A stretch of DNA of 64,000 nt, from assembly GCA_963766735.1 (NCBI GenBank), contig CAVYBU010000004.1, forward strand, positions 128,001 through 192,000. Reading direction: 5' to 3'. Under the pieces are notes generated by a model that saw nothing but the letters and a program-made list of their open reading frames with translations, did not search any database and was not told where the DNA came from. This document shows, one piece after another, positions 946-15,199 of this stretch (positions are counted from its first letter, which is position 1; each line of letters opens with the position of its first letter). Origin of the DNA: an uncultured Chloroflexia bacterium. Its GTDB lineage: Bacteria > Chloroflexota > Limnocylindria > Limnocylindrales > CSP1-4. The translations under genes were made by a program, and so were the position numbers.

Positions 946-1680
946 TCACCCCGTGCCGGGGAGCGGCGCCTCCCTCGCCAGGCGAACAGCCTCTGCGGCC
1001 CCGCCTCGGAAAGCATCACCGTGCCCGGGCAGCACCAGCGAAGCCTCGACGGACTCCAGCCTCGAGAGCGACGCCAGCGCCTGCTCTGCATCCGCCGAGA
1101 ACGGCGCCACCTGCGGTCCGCTCCGGCCTGTCGGGACGGCATAGGTGCACATCGCATCTCCAACGAAGAGCGTGTCGTGACCCGGGAAGTGGAGCGCCGC
1201 GCTGCCGGATGTGTGCCCCGGGACGTGGATGACGCGCGGTGCCCCCGGTACGTCCAGCGTGGCGCCGTCGCCATACGAGGCCACCTCGCCCAGGTGCGGG
1301 ACGCGCATCAGCCCATGCCGCAACGCCCACCACCCGAAGCGCAGCATCGGCCCGATCTTCATCGCGCCGCCGCCCGCCGAGGGGTTCGGCACCTCGCCGC
1401 GCGCGAGGGCGGCATCCACCTCGTGCACCCACACCGGCCAGCCCCGCTCGCGGCGCGCGCGCTCGGCGAACCCCACGTGATCGCTGTGGCCGTGGGTCAG
1501 GACGATGGCGCGCACGTCATCGAGGGTCCGGCCCATCGTCGCCAGCTCCGGCACAAGGTGCCTCCAGAGCCCGGGCGCGCCGGCATCGATGATGGTGACC
1601 TCGCCCGATTCCTCCAGGAGGTATGCGTTGACGATGCTGTCCCCGCCAACGCGGCGGATCCGGGGGGCGATCTCTGCCAT
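946..1680 (-). CDS. Metallo-beta-lactamase-fold hydrolase (glyoxalase II-like)
   Basis: THGHSDH (HxHxDH), PGHT, GDA and PGHG motifs. ATG at 1680 lies 6 nt after a TATCCT -10 box. Confidence 0.9.
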   Translation of the reverse strand: MAEIAPRIRRVGGDSIVNAYLLEESGEVTIIDAGAPGLWRHLVPELATMGRTLDDVRAIVLTHGHSDHVGFAERARRERGWPVWVHEVDAALARGEVPNPSAGGGAMKIGPMLRFGWWALRHGLMRVPHLGEVASYGDGATLDVPGAPRVIHVPGHTSGSAALHFPGHDTLFVGDAMCTYAVPTGRSGPQVAPFSADAEQALASLSRLESVEASLVLPGHGDAFRGGAAEAVRLAREAPLPGTG

Positions 1681-1784
1681 TCGTGGAGGATATCGGACCG
1701 GGTTCGCCCTCCCACGTCCCTCCTCCGCCAACAGGCTACTCTCGGCGAACACGTTTGGCCCGGAAGCGGCTACACTCACCAACC

Positions 1785-2807
1785 ATGACCGTGTCGAACG
1801 ACATCGACCTCGCCCTGCTCCTCGCCGACACCGAGACGGAGATCCTCCGCGTCGTCGGCAACCGGGACGCCTCCACCGTCGGCGTGTACGAGATGATCCG
1901 GTACCACCTCGGGCTGGACGGATCGACGGGCCCGCGCGGCAAGCGGATGCGCCCCCTGCTGGGGCTCCTGGCGTACGCGTCCATCGCGGGCGACCACGCC
2001 GCCGCCCTGCCGGGCGCCGCGGCCGTGGAGCTGGGCCACAACTTCAGCCTCGTCCATGACGACATCGAGGACGGCGACGTCGAGCGGCGCCACCGAGCCA
2101 CGCTCTGGGCGATCCACGGCGTGCCCCAGGCGATCAACACGGGCGACCTGATCTTCAGCCTGAGTCGTGTCGCGCTCCACCGCCTCACGGATCTTGGCTT
2201 CAGCGACGCGAAGGTCCTCCGGCTCATGCGCCTCTACGACGAGACGTGCGTGATGCTGTGCGAGGGCCAGTACATCGACATCGCGACGTCGGGATCCGAC
2301 CAGCCGATGACGGTCGGGCTCTACTTCGACATGATCGGCCGCAAGACCGCGGCTCTCATCTCCGCCTCCATCGAGGCCGGGGCACTGCTCGCCACGGACG
2401 ACGAGGCGATCATCACCGGCTACCGCCGGTTCGGGTGGTCGCTGGGCCTGGCGTTCCAGCTCAACGACGACCTGCTGGGCATCTGGGGACAGGAGCAGAA
2501 CACGGGCAAGGTGCCCACGGACGTGGCGCGCCACAAGAAGACGCTGCCGGTGCTGTACGCATTCGAGAACGCTGCACCCGCCGAGCGAGACCGCCTGGCC
2601 ACCCTGTACGCGATCGCCGACCCGACCGGCGCGCAGATCGAGGAGATCGTCACGATCCTGGAGCAGTCCGGCGCCCGGGACTTCACCCGCGCGGAGGCAC
2701 ATCGCCACCGCGACGCGTGCCTGGCCGAGCTCGATGGGCTGGACGTGATCGGCGATGCGGCGCGCGAGCGCCTGCGCGGGATCATCCACACGGTGATCAG
2801 CGCCTAG
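1785..2807 (+). CDS. Polyprenyl (GGPP/FPP-type) diphosphate synthase
   Basis: GKRMRP, first Asp-rich motif HDDIEDGD..RR, GQ, KT and FQLNDDLLG. This is the only plus-strand gene in the window. Confidence 0.93.
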   Translation: MTVSNDIDLALLLADTETEILRVVGNRDASTVGVYEMIRYHLGLDGSTGPRGKRMRPLLGLLAYASIAGDHAAALPGAAAVELGHNFSLVHDDIEDGDVERRHRATLWAIHGVPQAINTGDLIFSLSRVALHRLTDLGFSDAKVLRLMRLYDETCVMLCEGQYIDIATSGSDQPMTVGLYFDMIGRKTAALISASIEAGALLATDDEAIITGYRRFGWSLGLAFQLNDDLLGIWGQEQNTGKVPTDVARHKKTLPVLYAFENAAPAERDRLATLYAIADPTGAQIEEIVTILEQSGARDFTRAEAHRHRDACLAELDGLDVIGDAARERLRGIIHTVISA

Positions 2808-2808
2808 A

Positions 2809-3645
2809 TCAGGCCTCGTCCCTGGGCGACGCCTCCGAGTTCGGCGATGCGGCGGGCGACGCCTCCGCGGGTGACAGCTCCGAGGGAGAGGGCGCCGAGA
2901 GCGCCAGCCGATCGACCGGCGTCACCAGGATCCCCATCTGGCTGCGGAGCTCGCCCAGCCGCACGTCCGTCTCGGCCTGTCGCTGGGCCTCCTCGATCTC
3001 GAGCATCTGCATGTCGACGTTGGCGCCACTGATCTCCGTCATGGCCTGGGCGGCGGCCAGCCGCCGGTCGATCTTGTCGCTCACCTCTTCGAGCGTCGGG
3101 GAGTCACTCTCCACCGATGCCGTGAGCTGGCGCATCGCCGCGTTCATCTGCTCCTGCATCTCCGCCTGATCGAGCCTGCTCAGCAGCGATTCCCGCACCG
3201 CGAGCCTCTTCTGCAACGCCATCGAGCTGGTTCTCACGGCCTGCTTCGCGCGATCGGAGGCGGCGGTGGCATCCAGCAGGGACCGCTTGAGCGACTCGAT
3301 TTCGCGTTCCAGGGCGATCTGGCGGGCGACGAACGACTCGGCAGCCTGGGTGAGGCTCGCGACCTTCGAGGCGTCGCCGGCCCTTTCGGCCTGATCGGCC
3401 AGCAGGACCGCCTGTCGAGCCGATGCCGTCACGCGCCCGTACTCCTCGATCGACCTGTCCAGTCGGGCCTGGAGCTGGACCTGGTTCGCGACCACGTTGG
3501 CCGCCTGCTCTGTGAGCAGGCGGTGTTGTTCGCGCGCCTCTCCGATCGCCTGCTCCAGCTGCACTTTCGGGTCAGCGATCTCCTCCAGCTGCATGCCCAG
3601 CTTGGTCCCCAGATACCGCCACCATCGACGGATCGCCTTCAGCAT
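2809..3645 (-). CDS. pspA: PspA/IM30 (bacterial ESCRT-III) family protein, actinobacterial type
   Basis: N-terminal amphipathic helix MLKAIRRWWRYLG, then ADPKVQLEQAI..A...H..L..QAA.V.ANQ.QL, coiled coils and PTLEEV.DKI.RR. From memory this closely resembles mycobacterial Rv2744c. Confidence 0.9.
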   Translation of the reverse strand: MLKAIRRWWRYLGTKLGMQLEEIADPKVQLEQAIGEAREQHRLLTEQAANVVANQVQLQARLDRSIEEYGRVTASARQAVLLADQAERAGDASKVASLTQAAESFVARQIALEREIESLKRSLLDATAASDRAKQAVRTSSMALQKRLAVRESLLSRLDQAEMQEQMNAAMRQLTASVESDSPTLEEVSDKIDRRLAAAQAMTEISGANVDMQMLEIEEAQRQAETDVRLGELRSQMGILVTPVDRLALSAPSPSELSPAEASPAASPNSEASPRDEA

Positions 3646-3682
3646 CGAGCCTGTCCTCTCTGTCGATTGCCACTCTCCGTGG

Positions 3683-5221
3683 TCACGGCCGGATCCTCCG
3701 GTGGCCGGATCCCGTGTTGGTCGGGCTGTGGCCCAGCAGCCGTTGCATGCCGTCGCGAGCTCCGCGGATCGCGACGCGGATGCCGTCGGCGGCACCGGAC
3801 AACGCGATGCGAAGCCGCTGCCGCGCGTCCGACAGCGAGCGGCGGAGCGACCGAGCAGCGCCCGAGATCGCCGCTGACAGAGCCCTCGCCGCGGCCGCCA
3901 GCACCCTCGCCGCGGCCACGACTGGCGGCCGGATTGCTGACAGCGCCGAGCCTACGATCCGCCGGGCGGCACGGCCCGTGACCACGAACGCAACGATGAT
4001 GACGAGCAGCATCGTTCGCACTGCCCGGAGGGCCGGTGCGATGAGCCCGTCCATGACGAGACGTGATGTCCTCGCGATGAACCCGACAGCCCTGGAGACG
4101 GCCGCAGCCAGGGCGGAGGCTACGCGGCGGGTCGTAGCGGCCATAGCGCGGAAGGCGGCCACGAGCCCCTGGGTCGCGAGGCGGAACGGCGGCCCGAGGA
4201 CGAGCGCGATCGCCCGGGCCGTCGACCTGAGGGCATGCGCCGTGGCAAACACCATCGCCCGGATCAAGACGCCCGCGAAATGGAAGGTCATGCGCAGGGC
4301 CAGAACCCCGGCCAGGAACGCGACCAAGGCACGCGCGAGGAGCCGTCCGACAGTTCGGCCGGACACCCTTGCCACCGGGCGAAGCGCGACGAGCAGGCGA
4401 ATCAGGCTCCTTCCAGCCAGGCGGAAACCGACGGCCAGGCCATGACCAACAGCGCGGAGGACGTCCGCGAACCCGTGGGCAGCGACCCGCAGGACGGCGG
4501 CGATACGGCGTCCGAGCTCGGCGAGGACGTGGCCGGCGGCGCGGAGGACGTCCGCGAACGCGTGGGCAGCGACCCGCAGGACGGCGGCGATGCGGCGTCC
4601 GAGCTCGGCGAGGACGTGGCCGGCGGCGCGGACTGGCCGGGCAAGCTGGTGAGCGATCGCCTTGAGCACGACCACCAGGCGGCGGCCGAGCTCGGCGAGG
4701 ACATGGCCGGCGGCGCGGAGGACGTCTGCGGTCGCGTGGCCGGCGGCGCGCAGCACGGCGGCGACCCGCCTGCCGAATTCGGCAAGAACGTGGCCCAGCG
4801 CGCGGATAGGCCGGGCAACCTGGTGAGCGATGGCCTTGAGCACGACAACGAGGCGGCGGCCGAGCTCGGCGAGGACATGGCCGGCGGCGCGCAGCACGTC
4901 GGCCGCGGCGTGGCCGACGGCGCGCAGGACCGCGGCGACCCTCCGCCCGAGCTTGGCGAGCACGTTCCCGACCGCACGCAGGACGTCCTCAGCCGCGCGG
5001 CCAACCGCGAGGGCACCGGCCGCCACGCGTCGTATCGCGACCTCGGCAACCTTGACCAAGGTCTCCATGGTCCAGGCAACGCCATGCAGCGTTGCCCGGA
5101 CGATCCAGCGAGCCGAGAGGTAGCCGGCGACGAAGGGCATCATCAGCCAGACCAGAGGGCCGCTTGTCGCACGCGGCACCACCACCGGGGATCGCTCCCC
5201 CGCTCCTTCCTCAGGCAACAT
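3683..5221 (-). CDS. 512-aa Ala/Val/Arg-rich amphipathic helical-repeat membrane protein of unknown function
   Basis: ATG at 5221 overlaps the upstream gene's end by 11 nt. Third codon positions are GC-rich on the minus strand. Contains seven 29-aa repeats and 2-3 hydrophobic segments. Confidence 0.8.
   Translation of the reverse strand: MLPEEGAGERSPVVVPRATSGPLVWLMMPFVAGYLSARWIVRATLHGVAWTMETLVKVAEVAIRRVAAGALAVGRAAEDVLRAVGNVLAKLGRRVAAVLRAVGHAAADVLRAAGHVLAELGRRLVVVLKAIAHQVARPIRALGHVLAEFGRRVAAVLRAAGHATADVLRAAGHVLAELGRRLVVVLKAIAHQLARPVRAAGHVLAELGRRIAAVLRVAAHAFADVLRAAGHVLAELGRRIAAVLRVAAHGFADVLRAVGHGLAVGFRLAGRSLIRLLVALRPVARVSGRTVGRLLARALVAFLAGVLALRMTFHFAGVLIRAMVFATAHALRSTARAIALVLGPPFRLATQGLVAAFRAMAATTRRVASALAAAVSRAVGFIARTSRLVMDGLIAPALRAVRTMLLVIIVAFVVTGRAARRIVGSALSAIRPPVVAAARVLAAAARALSAAISGAARSLRRSLSDARQRLRIALSGAADGIRVAIRGARDGMQRLLGHSPTNTGSGHRRIRP
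4424..5032 (-). repeat. Seven in-frame 87-bp tandem repeats (29 aa; consensus RRVAAVLRAxGHAxADVLRAAGHVLAELG)
   Basis: 87-bp period visible directly (aggacgtggccggcggcgcg at 4524 and 4611). Units 2-3 and 4-5 form a higher-order 174-bp duplication. Confidence 0.92.
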
Positions 5222-6032
5222 CTTCCGGGTTCCCGCTTCGCAGGCGCGTCCGGAGCCGCTCGAGCTCGTCCACCGCGCCGACGCCCGTCCCCGCCTCGAG
5301 CTCCTCGCGTGCTCTCGCCACGGCTGCCGCACGTTCGCGAGCACCCTCGGTGACGTCGGTGTCATCGCGCATCCTCGCGCGCTGCCACGCACGGCTCCCC
5401 CGGACGATCTGGGCGGTGAGATCACGGATCGCCCGTGTCCGGCGCTCGACGTACTCGCGCTCCTCGTCGCTGAGCGGCGGCCTCCCATCGAGCAGCGAGG
5501 CGACCTCGAGCAGCGCGGCGTGCCCCGCCTCGAGGGCCGCGGAGCTCACGGGCACGCCCGGAAGGCTGGCCGCGTGCTGGAGCGAGTCGTATGACCCCAC
5601 GAGCGCCCCGACGGTCGCGTCCGAGGCATCGAGCGCATGGCCGGCTCGAAGCACGCGACGCCTGCGCCGCACGATCCGGCGCTCGCGTGCCGCCCGGACG
5701 ATGCTGCGGGCCGGGAGCGCGACACCCAGCACGATCGCGACGATGCCGATGATGAACCAGGGGCCGGCACCTCCGGTCAGCCATGACCACAGCACCAGGG
5801 CGATGCCTCCGCCCACGAGGACGACATCGAACAGCCCGGGGCCCTCATCGGTACTCGGTCCGAATACCTCGTCGATGATCACGTCGAGGTCGTCGCCCCT
5901 GGCGGCGCCGACGTCATCGAGGACACGGAGGGGACCGGGCGTCCTGGGGACCACGACGATCTGCCGTTCGGGTGAACCGTTCGCCGACCGATCCTCGTCC
6001 TCGCCAGACTGCCGCGCGTCGTGGCCCGTCAT
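5211..6032 (-). CDS. Hypothetical protein with two adjacent TM helices and a helical cytoplasmic domain (possible PspM-like anchor)
   Basis: Hydrophobic hairpin VVLVGGGIALVLWSWL / WFIIGIVAIVLGVAL followed by an Arg-rich stretch. SD-like GAGGGTGG upstream. First gene of the pspA locus. Confidence 0.75.
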   Translation of the reverse strand: MTGHDARQSGEDEDRSANGSPERQIVVVPRTPGPLRVLDDVGAARGDDLDVIIDEVFGPSTDEGPGLFDVVLVGGGIALVLWSWLTGGAGPWFIIGIVAIVLGVALPARSIVRAARERRIVRRRRRVLRAGHALDASDATVGALVGSYDSLQHAASLPGVPVSSAALEAGHAALLEVASLLDGRPPLSDEEREYVERRTRAIRDLTAQIVRGSRAWQRARMRDDTDVTEGARERAAAVARAREELEAGTGVGAVDELERLRTRLRSGNPEDVA

Positions 6033-6224
6033 CTGTCACCACCCTCAGCCGCTGGACGGCCGAAGCCGGACGCTTTCAAGCGCATGCTGAGCCCACAGGC
6101 GGGCACGTGACGAGGGCCCACGGACACCCGGTACGCATCTCCCAACGTCCGTCCCCGCCGCCCGTCCGTCCCGACCCGGCTGTGGGTCACTCCCCGTGTG
6201 GGATCGTCCCCGTGACACCAACGC

Positions 6225-6318
6225 GTGTCATCACCGGGGTGCTCACGCTCGGCTCGGGGGTCGAACCCCGGGTTCGGGACGCGAGTCACGCTCGTCCATC
6301 GCCCCGGTGACACATGGC
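6225..6318 (+). repeat. Conserved intergenic palindromic element, copy 1 (possible ncRNA or REP/MITE-like unit)
   Basis: 94 nt with 82/94 identities to 15057-15150 and no gaps. Ends are self-complementary (gtgtcatcaccggggtg / cgccccggtgacac). Confidence 0.85.
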
Positions 6319-6543
6319 GGGGTTGCGGGGGAGCGACGCGGAGTCGCGGGGTTGCGGTCGCGCGGGCGCGATGCGGCACGGGGAATGGGATGTGCGTCCG
6401 GACACCCGGTCGCCCGGGACCGCCGTCGATCGCTGGTCGGTGCATGACCGAATGACGCTCGTGCGCGGATTTCGTGACAGCGAATGCCGGAGGACCCCTG
6501 GGCCGCACCCCAGGGCCGGAATGTCGCTAGCGCCGGAGAGCCT

Positions 6544-15056: not shown

Positions 15057-15150
15057 GTGTCATCGCCGGGGTGCTCACGCTCGGCTCGACGGTCGAACCC
15101 CGCGTTCAGGACGCGAGTCGCGCCTGGCCGGCGCCCCGGTGGCACATGGC
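15057..15150 (+). repeat. Conserved intergenic palindromic element, copy 2
   Basis: 87% identical to 6225-6318. The hairpin extends outward (cctgcgactc 15041-15050 / gagtcgcggg 15152-15161). Confidence 0.85.
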
Positions 15151-15199
15151 TGAGTCGCGGGACGCGGGCGGGGCGGGACGCGGTGTCCCGATCCCGGCG

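Follow-up and report, generated by a model that had tools for sequence, protein, structure and literature searches.

The window analysed here is a stretch of 64,000 nucleotides (nt) from an uncultured Chloroflexia bacterium (contig CAVYBU010000004.1, positions 128,001 to 192,000), and the subject of this report is a cluster of three genes on its minus strand, which encode an integral membrane protein with two transmembrane helices (TM2), a long repeat protein (REP) and a member of the PspA/IM30 family. Two of these genes, TM2 and REP, form the conserved unit, a pair found across two phyla, and pspA is an optional third gene. The features of the locus are:

2809-3645, minus strand: PspA/IM30 paralogue, 278 residues from the ATG at 3645, assigned by PF04012
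3683-5221, minus strand: REP, a repeat protein rich in Ala, Arg, Val and Leu, 512 residues from the ATG at 5221, called from its open reading frame (ORF), a strand test and homologues
4452-4988, minus strand: tandem DNA repeat array within REP, with periods of 87 and 174 nt (29 and 58 residues)
5211-6032, minus strand: TM2, an integral membrane protein of 273 residues with two transmembrane helices, called from its ORF, its hydropathy and an AlphaFold2 model
6033-6543, minus strand: intergenic region 5' of TM2, 511 nt, presumed to hold the promoter

The three genes and their products

The genes are co-directional and tightly packed, as the first-pass annotation of this DNA had described, and every coordinate given there holds: the reading frames of TM2 and REP overlap by 11 nt (5211-5221), and a gap of 37 nt (3646-3682) separates REP from pspA. 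The ORFs with the longest possible starts run over 3683..5488 for REP (601 residues) and 2809..3795 for PspA (328 residues). The shorter starts adopted here are backed by relatives, since the REP relatives P0002 and P0003 begin with MLPE..., in support of the ATG at 5221, and the consensus N-terminus of 47 PspA relatives, MLKAIRRWWRYLG (reported as MLKAIRRWW), supports the ATG at 3645. A purine-rich stretch lies a few bases 5' of each start.

The DNA of the window has about 70% G+C (GC), and the exact antisense frame of REP (plus strand, 4235..5353) is also open, with a GC by codon position that in the repeat part is at least as gene-like as that of the sense frame. Such features might be expected if the 512-residue ORF were a chance open frame in GC-rich DNA or if the antisense frame were the true gene, an explanation that is next to impossible in view of the substitutions that separate the window from its closest relative, L023. 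The differences number 61, 42 and 124 at sense codon positions 1, 2 and 3, and the changed codons comprise 95 synonymous and 90 non-synonymous cases in the sense frame versus 30 and 155 in the antisense frame. Since more than half of the differences fall on third positions of the sense frame, the minus-strand REP gene is real. Its conservation in two phyla with a specific N-terminal motif also speaks against a spurious frame.

The Kyte-Doolittle profile of TM2 has two hydrophobic peaks, beginning at residues 67 and 94. The AlphaFold2 model, built with 75 homologues, has a mean predicted local distance difference test score (pLDDT) of 80.8, with blocks of 94-99 over residues 131-220, and places a membrane hairpin at helices 67-86 and 91-105. 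In the model an N-terminal strand (25-29, the conserved VVVPR of the motif VVVPR.PGPL) lies beside a strand at 131-135, an acidic helix (41-57) carries the conserved DDLDxLIDE, and an Arg-rich juxtamembrane helix is followed by a confidently modelled helical domain that includes a long helix at 189-249. The pairing of strands 25-29 and 131-135, together with the 11 Arg found within about 25 residues right after the second membrane helix, suggests that both the N- and the C-terminus of TM2 are cytoplasmic.

In all, 80 TM2 homologues were collected, and the family comprises 345 clusters at 50% identity (E <= 0.001), 177 of them at E <= 1e-30. The protein belongs to no Pfam (E <= 0.1) or NCBIfam family, its model gave no Foldseek match in the PDB at E <= 0.001, and the wide VIA-align search returned generic helical bundles with a best Z of 7.7. 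A search of ESM Atlas with TM2 gave unnamed actinobacterial clusters and, at rank 19 with a score of 0.82, a cluster of the Rv2743c family, which is a weak lead. The hairpin bears a weak resemblance to the DUF202/YidH-like family (PF02656), with matches at E <= 1 in 10 of 20 TM2 members (best 1.6e-4); the match of the window protein covers residues 71-119.

REP is compositionally extreme, as Ala (116), Arg (72), Val (67), Leu (66) and Gly (44) make up 365 of its 512 residues (71%), and its net charge is +56. The repeat DNA has a period of 174 nt, present in 2.6 copies with 84% matches, and residues of about 45-290 (some 240 residues) consist of amphipathic units of 29 and 58 residues. The units are of the type xxVL(R/K)AxxHxxAxxxRAxGHVLAExGRRx, with five or six Arg per 29-residue unit, and the pattern is broken by an RP pair in alternate 29-residue units. 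Basic residues recur with a period of 3.6 (power 27.7, with values of 1.7-13.5 for the other periods tested), a hydrophobic moment of 0.44-0.67 is maintained across residues 45-286, and on a helical wheel drawn by eye the polar face takes up about 140 degrees, the remaining 220 degrees or so being occupied by Ala, Val, Leu and Gly. The polar stripe is formed by Arg, with regularly placed His in the Chloroflexota forms and few acidic residues. Because 29 residues correspond to eight turns, the Arg stripe runs straight along the helix. Homologues of REP include P0001-P0006. The alignments (with the exclusion of L024, in which the frame is interrupted, and, after alignment A4, of L039, for which the ORF taken was out of frame) show that the columns conserved between the phyla are almost all Arg. 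The number of repeat copies varies among relatives, and the gaps between the window, P0001 and P0002 sit in the repeat array. A repeat helix of some 240 residues with a continuous Arg stripe is unusual in its own right, and REP is the most unusual element of the cluster.

At its N-terminus REP has a short conserved hydrophobic helix, PLVWLMMPFVAGY, of which the Acidimicrobiia version is ILAVPLVPFVAAWE; a Pro in it is conserved. Chloroflexota forms have two more hydrophobic segments (about 291-320 and 397-415), and the C-terminus is rich in Arg. A Pro-rich stretch precedes the REP motif in L040 (about 150 residues) and in L035 (more than 300 residues), and P0004 (795 residues) reads as an in-frame fusion of TM2 and REP, so that in it the N-terminal helix of REP comes after the cytoplasmic domain of TM2. 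P0004 is the sole clean fusion counted and, as a single metagenome sequence, could be an assembly error; P0003, P0005, P0006 and P0186 contain frame-shifted stretches and were therefore left out of the count. The helix is short, contains Pro, has a hydropathy below the threshold for a membrane span, and follows either a Pro-rich segment (L035, L040) or the TM2 domain (P0004), which would argue for a monotopic anchor or docking helix with the repeats on the cytoplasmic side.

No Pfam or NCBIfam family was found for REP, and ESM Atlas returned unnamed actinobacterial clusters only. The first-pass annotation had compared REP to perilipins and apolipoproteins, and the comparison holds in one respect only: like the helices of apolipoproteins, perilipins and alpha-synuclein, REP has long amphipathic repeats punctuated by Pro (RP every 29 or 58 residues), and a periodicity that keeps the hydrophobic face straight is what is expected of a helix lying on a lipid surface. 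The family model lends it little, as the Apolipoprotein model (PF01442) gives 12.4 bits where the cut-off is 90 and is matched at E <= 1 by 3 of 12 REP members (best 0.061), so that the likeness is one of helix periodicity. The polar face of REP also differs from that of apolipoprotein-type helices in being nearly all Arg and His with few acidic residues, and REP is a bacterial protein with a dedicated membrane anchor.

Two other roles for such a protein were considered. REP could be a cationic helix protein that perturbs the membrane or forms pores, in the manner of a holin or channel, and is controlled by TM2 while PspA contains or repairs the damage. The wide hydrophobic faces with a narrow Arg stripe, the Pro-punctuated segments of 29 residues, whose length is close to that of a tilted membrane span, and the two additional hydrophobic segments of the Chloroflexota forms would suit this role, and PspA responds to membrane leakage. 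However, five or six Arg per unit are unfavourable inside a bilayer, and a phage or defence context is lacking: the PADLOC search gave only weak rows for PspA and REP (E 0.005-0.05), none for TM2 and no membership of a defence system, none of 597 pattern matches to TM2 in viral contigs was confirmed, and the neighbours are housekeeping genes. TM2 and PspA have no PHROG match, and the only one for REP, to a tape-measure family (E 4.1e-8, spread over residues 52-482), probably reflects shared composition. We consider the pore-forming role very improbable.

The second role is binding of a soluble polyanion (polyphosphate or nucleic acid) by a REP tethered to the membrane through TM2, and it is in line with the high positive charge, with the nearly all-Arg conserved columns and with the regular His of the Chloroflexota repeats. 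The resemblance of the TM2 hairpin to DUF202 may also be mentioned in this respect, as DUF202 covers the membrane part of yeast polyphosphate-polymerase subunits as well. The DUF202 match of the window protein is below the cut-off, though (13.4 versus 23.4 bits), no nucleic-acid-binding or CHAD-type family was found in 12 REP sequences at E <= 1, and a strictly amphipathic pattern with so broad a hydrophobic face is better suited to a lipid or protein surface than to a soluble ligand, which makes this role highly improbable.

The third gene belongs to the PspA/IM30 family, with a match to PF04012 (E 2.6e-20, 73.4 bits versus a cut-off of 33.9) that aligns residues 7-235 with profile positions 5-216 of 220. 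The protein has a net charge of -9 and is the second PspA of the genome, the other copy (G000:C2:121020-121703) being 21% identical to it. The match of that other copy contains one in-frame TGA and lies inside an open frame of 1099 residues. The 17 congeners with any PspA match carry only this other, genus-wide type, which is 20-27% identical to the PspA of the triad. Outside triad loci the nearest relatives are PspAs of Acidimicrobiia and other Actinomycetota, with identities of 42-52% in five Acidimicrobiia genomes and of 57-61% to proteins named as actinomycetotal by their sources. In the phylogenetic tree (from which L004, L005, L006 and L020 were omitted, their tblastn segment being shorter than 150 residues or missing) PspAs of the triad type fall together with the actinobacterial ones in a single clade (100/100 support), from which the genus-wide Chloroflexia PspA is separate. 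Neither the direction of transfer nor a donor can be read from this tree, since the branch to the outgroup measures some 10 changes per site and the Chloroflexota sequences form a grade. One database protein of 444 residues (P0254) has two tandem PspA domains and is 54% identical to the PspA of the window.

Distribution of the pair and of the triad

A scan of one genome per species gave at least 20 TM2 loci, seven of them in Chloroflexota and 13 in Actinomycetota, mostly Acidimicrobiia; Aquihabitans sp. G128 is among the actinomycetotal carriers of the pair. With a regular expression for the motif (I/V)LA.PL.PFVA.W, an ORF of the REP type was recognised after TM2 in 19 of the 20 listed loci, and in the remaining one (L035) it was recognised by eye. 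Among 14 metagenome loci the motif was detected after TM2 in nine by the regular expression and in two more (L079 and L084) by eye; the inspection by eye did not extend to L078 and L080, and L088 is too short to be judged. The 11-nt overlap of TM2 and REP is found in L023 as in the window, and candidate REP starts lie a few codons from the TM2 stop in L025, L032, L033, L039 and L041. As the stop of TM2 and the start of REP overlap or abut in many loci, coupled translation of the two genes fits the arrangement. In L040 (8717-8721) TM2 and REP share one reading frame with a single stop codon between them.

The order TM2-REP-PspA is present in the window and in five of the 20 listed loci (L023, L024, L025, L028 and L030), all from Chloroflexota, and two further listed Chloroflexota loci end inside REP. 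Thus homologues of the repeat protein do co-occur with pspA, which had been proposed as a check in the first-pass annotation. The spacing between REP and pspA in the triad loci is about 0 to 40 nt. The flanks of the triad are of two kinds, CorC/polyprenyl synthase and, in L028, an M50 peptidase upstream and NusA downstream; since the flanks of L028 differ and its TM2 is 43% identical, the order of the triad has been kept while its surroundings changed. In four other Chloroflexia genomes with TM2, REP is adjacent in all four and pspA in three, and in G401 and G577 all three genes lie together.

Gene clusters other than TM2 and REP are common to at most four of the 20 listed loci. The neighbours of the pair in the Actinomycetota loci and in the Chloroflexia genome G624 are housekeeping genes, such as those for a GyrB-like ATPase, an M23 peptidase, an N-acetyltransferase, a peroxiredoxin, topoisomerase IB and PadR. 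The triad as a whole had at first been put forward as the system. This view has to be changed in that pspA is not adjacent in the 13 listed Actinomycetota loci, several of them cut short, and in G624, and the unit that is conserved in both phyla is the pair. All five pair-carrying Acidimicrobiia genomes that were tested do have a gene for a PspA of the triad's subfamily at another place, which in G041 is some 1.6 Mb from the pair; in the four such loci viewed (neighbours judged by eye) this pspA is flanked by a gene for a large multi-pass membrane protein on one side and by other housekeeping genes on the other, and no partner gene accompanies it. In the class of G041, TM2 was found in at least one of 301 genomes, with a first-look filter that scored about eight candidates per genome.

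The genes around the triad in the window were identified by family scan and agree with the flanks originally reported, hlyC/corC and a convergent polyprenyl synthase. A gene for a protein with CNNM, CBS and CorC_HlyC domains lies on the same strand 511 nt upstream of TM2, and the synthase gene (1683-2807, plus strand) is convergent with pspA downstream, the two stops being one base apart. The best NCBIfam match of the synthase is a family-2 encapsulin cargo polyprenyl transferase, at 251.7 bits and thus below the cut-off of 450. More distant neighbours are RecO, an MBL-fold protein, a GlmU-like protein, RidA and a GHMP kinase.

In 24 congeners neither REP (0/24) nor a PspA of the triad type (0/24) was found, and one of the 24 has only a TM2 remnant of 52 residues, so that in the genomes sampled from the genus either all three genes occur or none does. 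The matches to CorC and to the polyprenyl synthase end 15-91 nt apart in G005, G006, G010 and G014. In G012 (L089, G012:C359:38200-43000, positions 1462-3640) they are separated by a gap of 2.3 kb, in which the region upstream of TM2 and the first 50 of its codons come first and unrelated ORFs follow. Because CorC and the synthase abut in four congeners and G012 holds a TM2 remnant together with other cargo, the site is a variable accessory slot, at which the triad has been gained and lost as a block. Among the ORFs of the G012 slot, viewed by eye, one has a start like a lipoprotein signal and one of 243 residues has a GDSGS motif like that of S1 serine proteases. Sixteen genomes of the same order as the window (G025-G040) measure 1.0-1.4 Mb at 84-93% completeness, versus 2.3-4.6 Mb in the genus of the window.

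Comparison with known PspA partners and a possible function

PspA-family proteins commonly have as partners small membrane proteins that are specific to a lineage, PspBC, LiaI and PspM among them (PMC11237479; bioRxiv 10.64898/2026.09.09.750162). The text of a survey of Psp partners lists PspBC, LiaI/LiaF/Toastrack, PspM/PspN, PspAA/PspAB, Band-7/flotillin, CesT/Tir, TPM and others, and states that PspM and PspN are not found outside Actinobacteria (PMC11237479). None of the partners described in that text resembles the TM2-REP pair, and no account of such a pair was found in the literature searched, the supplementary tables of the survey being a place where it could be listed. This is in agreement with the first-pass annotation, according to which the repeat protein matches no known Psp partner and neither pspF, pspBC, liaRS nor clgR lies nearby: among the neighbouring genes scanned there is no Psp, Lia or ClgR regulator, PspF and LiaRS included, and at E <= 1 none of the PspB, PspC, LiaI-LiaF-TM and Toastrack models matched TM2 (20 members) or REP (12 members). 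PspBC of E. coli and LiaI/LiaF of Bacillus are likewise small integral membrane proteins encoded with PspA or LiaH and are thought to recruit or regulate them (PMC11237479), but the triad differs from these systems in having no PspF or LiaRS regulator among the neighbours scanned.

The closest comparison is to the mycobacterial clgR-pspA-pspM(-pspN) genes (Rv2745c-Rv2742c). In that system PspM, which has two transmembrane helices and a helical cytoplasmic domain, interacts with PspA, one species of which it retains at the membrane (bioRxiv 10.64898/2026.09.09.750162). The triad shares with it a PspA beside a lineage-specific protein with two transmembrane helices, and a PspA that groups with the actinobacterial ones. 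The model of TM2 and the PspM sequences, compared by eye, also have a common layout, and a layout only, of a cytoplasmic N-terminal segment, a membrane hairpin and a helical cytoplasmic C-terminal domain of about 150 residues. These likenesses, and the Rv2743c-family cluster met as a lead in the protein-language-model search, could indicate that the triad is a highly diverged actinobacterial pspA-pspM(-pspN) operon with TM2 as a remote PspM homologue. However, when whole genomes were searched with PF25587 (PspM/Rv2743c) at E <= 10, the TM2 gene was not matched in G000, G041, G042 or G043, while the same model found 8 true members above its cut-off in 301 Actinomycetota genomes, and an hhalign comparison of TM2 (A3, 75 sequences) with the PspM family (A6, 8 sequences) gave a probability of 4.4% over 40 columns, in the membrane hairpin only. 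TM2 is thus PspM-like in layout and not a detectable member of the PspM family. In addition, the partners precede pspA in the triad, a ClgR-like gene is not found near it, the second partner is a 512-residue Arg-striped repeat protein, with no DUF3046 (PspN) hit in any of the 12 REP sequences (Pfam, E <= 1), and the pair is also widespread without an adjacent pspA. That the triad is a diverged form of the mycobacterial operon is for these reasons very improbable, and it matches none of the Psp operon types compared here, a point that had been raised at the outset as one to check.

Observed features are the genes of the triad with the way they are ordered and spaced, the conservation of TM2 together with REP, the periodic amphipathic pattern of REP and the want of a known family for these two proteins. 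With these in hand, our preferred reading is that TM2 and REP may constitute an anchor and a cationic amphipathic coat on the cytoplasmic face of the membrane, which in some Chloroflexota works with a dedicated PspA paralogue; we give this a probability of roughly 0.45, somewhat short of even odds. TM2, its N- and C-terminus both on the cytoplasmic side, would serve as integral anchor, and REP would be produced in a fixed ratio with it by means of the overlapping or abutting reading frames. The short Pro-containing N-terminal helix would hold REP at the membrane, so that its long straight amphipathic helices could be laid on the inner leaflet, with the Arg stripe (and the His in Chloroflexota) binding anionic lipid head groups. 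The acidic PspA, a polymer of the ESCRT-III type, might then be recruited to, or organised on, this cationic platform and stabilise a stressed membrane. The topology, the membrane binding, the contact with PspA and the stress function of the triad are what we infer from sequence and models. A complex prediction for TM2 (A3) and PspA residues 1-245 (A8) scored 0.01 versus a mark of 0.32, a value obtained without controls that says nothing either way.

Several of our results weigh against this reading. No 19-residue window of the N-terminal helix of REP reaches a Kyte-Doolittle value of 1.6, which bears on the mode of attachment, and the AlphaFold2 model of REP, although made of long helices throughout, is of low confidence (pLDDT 59.4). 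None of the 20 listed holders of the sequence is an RNA dataset, all being DNA metagenome contigs. The module is rare, with five carriers among 401 genomes sampled in the class, all from one family. Within the genus the phyletic pattern counts for little as evidence of a common function, because adjacent genes come and go together whatever they do. An adjacent pspA is present in 0 of 13 listed Actinomycetota loci, several of which end early, and in 0 of 14 metagenome loci, just five of which have at least 2.5 kb downstream. The Chloroflexia genome G624, which is 95% complete, has the pair, and a PspA of the triad type is absent both genome-wide (E <= 1e-30) and from the 12-kb locus.

The latter observations are those on which the main competing explanation draws, namely that TM2 and REP are an autonomous membrane module, for instance a structural or scaffolding one, unrelated to PspA, and that pspA merely landed beside it in the slot. 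The pair standing alone in every listed Actinomycetota locus and in G624, its unrelated housekeeping neighbours there and the variability of the site in the window are all in its favour. Against it, the order and the close spacing (at most 40 nt) of the triad are kept in two flanking contexts and down to 43% TM2 identity, and every pair-carrying member of the Acidimicrobiia tested encodes a PspA from the subfamily of the triad, which stands without a partner gene in the four loci viewed. We regard an autonomous module as possible but on the unlikely side. Returning to the anchor and coat, a partnership with PspA might operate in trans in Acidimicrobiia.

It is tempting to go one step further and to suppose that TM2-REP is an unrecognised kind of bacterial membrane coat, in which the anchor nucleates a polymeric coat of Arg-striped helices on the cytoplasmic leaflet as a landing platform for a PspA that some Chloroflexota encode in cis and Acidimicrobiia in trans. 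This bolder proposal is distinctly unlikely as it stands, and if true the coat would be a protein-based marking of the membrane for ESCRT-III action. PspA, Vipp1 and ESCRT-III are universal membrane-repair polymers, and their targeting is lineage-dependent and poorly known outside Proteobacteria, Firmicutes and mycobacteria. The cluster supplies two candidate PspA partners that belong to no family, and TM2-REP-PspA would be placed among the lineage-specific PspA partner sets, in a new form. The occurrence of the pair with PspA in cis, in trans or not at all offers a natural comparison for asking whether such coats recruit ESCRT-III polymers, and Aquihabitans sp. G128, which has a complete genome record and may be in culture, could make genetics possible.

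The intergenic region upstream of TM2

In the 511-nt region between corC and TM2 a scan for sigma-70-like promoters gave 0 sites, and the single terminator-like site of the scan falls inside REP. An Rfam scan of the region at E <= 1 returned no plausible family, the only matches being to two implausible eukaryotic families. About 300 nt of the region (roughly 6127-6427) have no counterpart in the closest relative, L023, as seen both in the alignment and by pairwise BLAST, and this segment looks like a small dispersed repeat element. A piece of 105 nt within it (6225-6329) has a copy with 86% identity at 15057-15161 of the window, and more partial copies are found on contig 30 of the genome.

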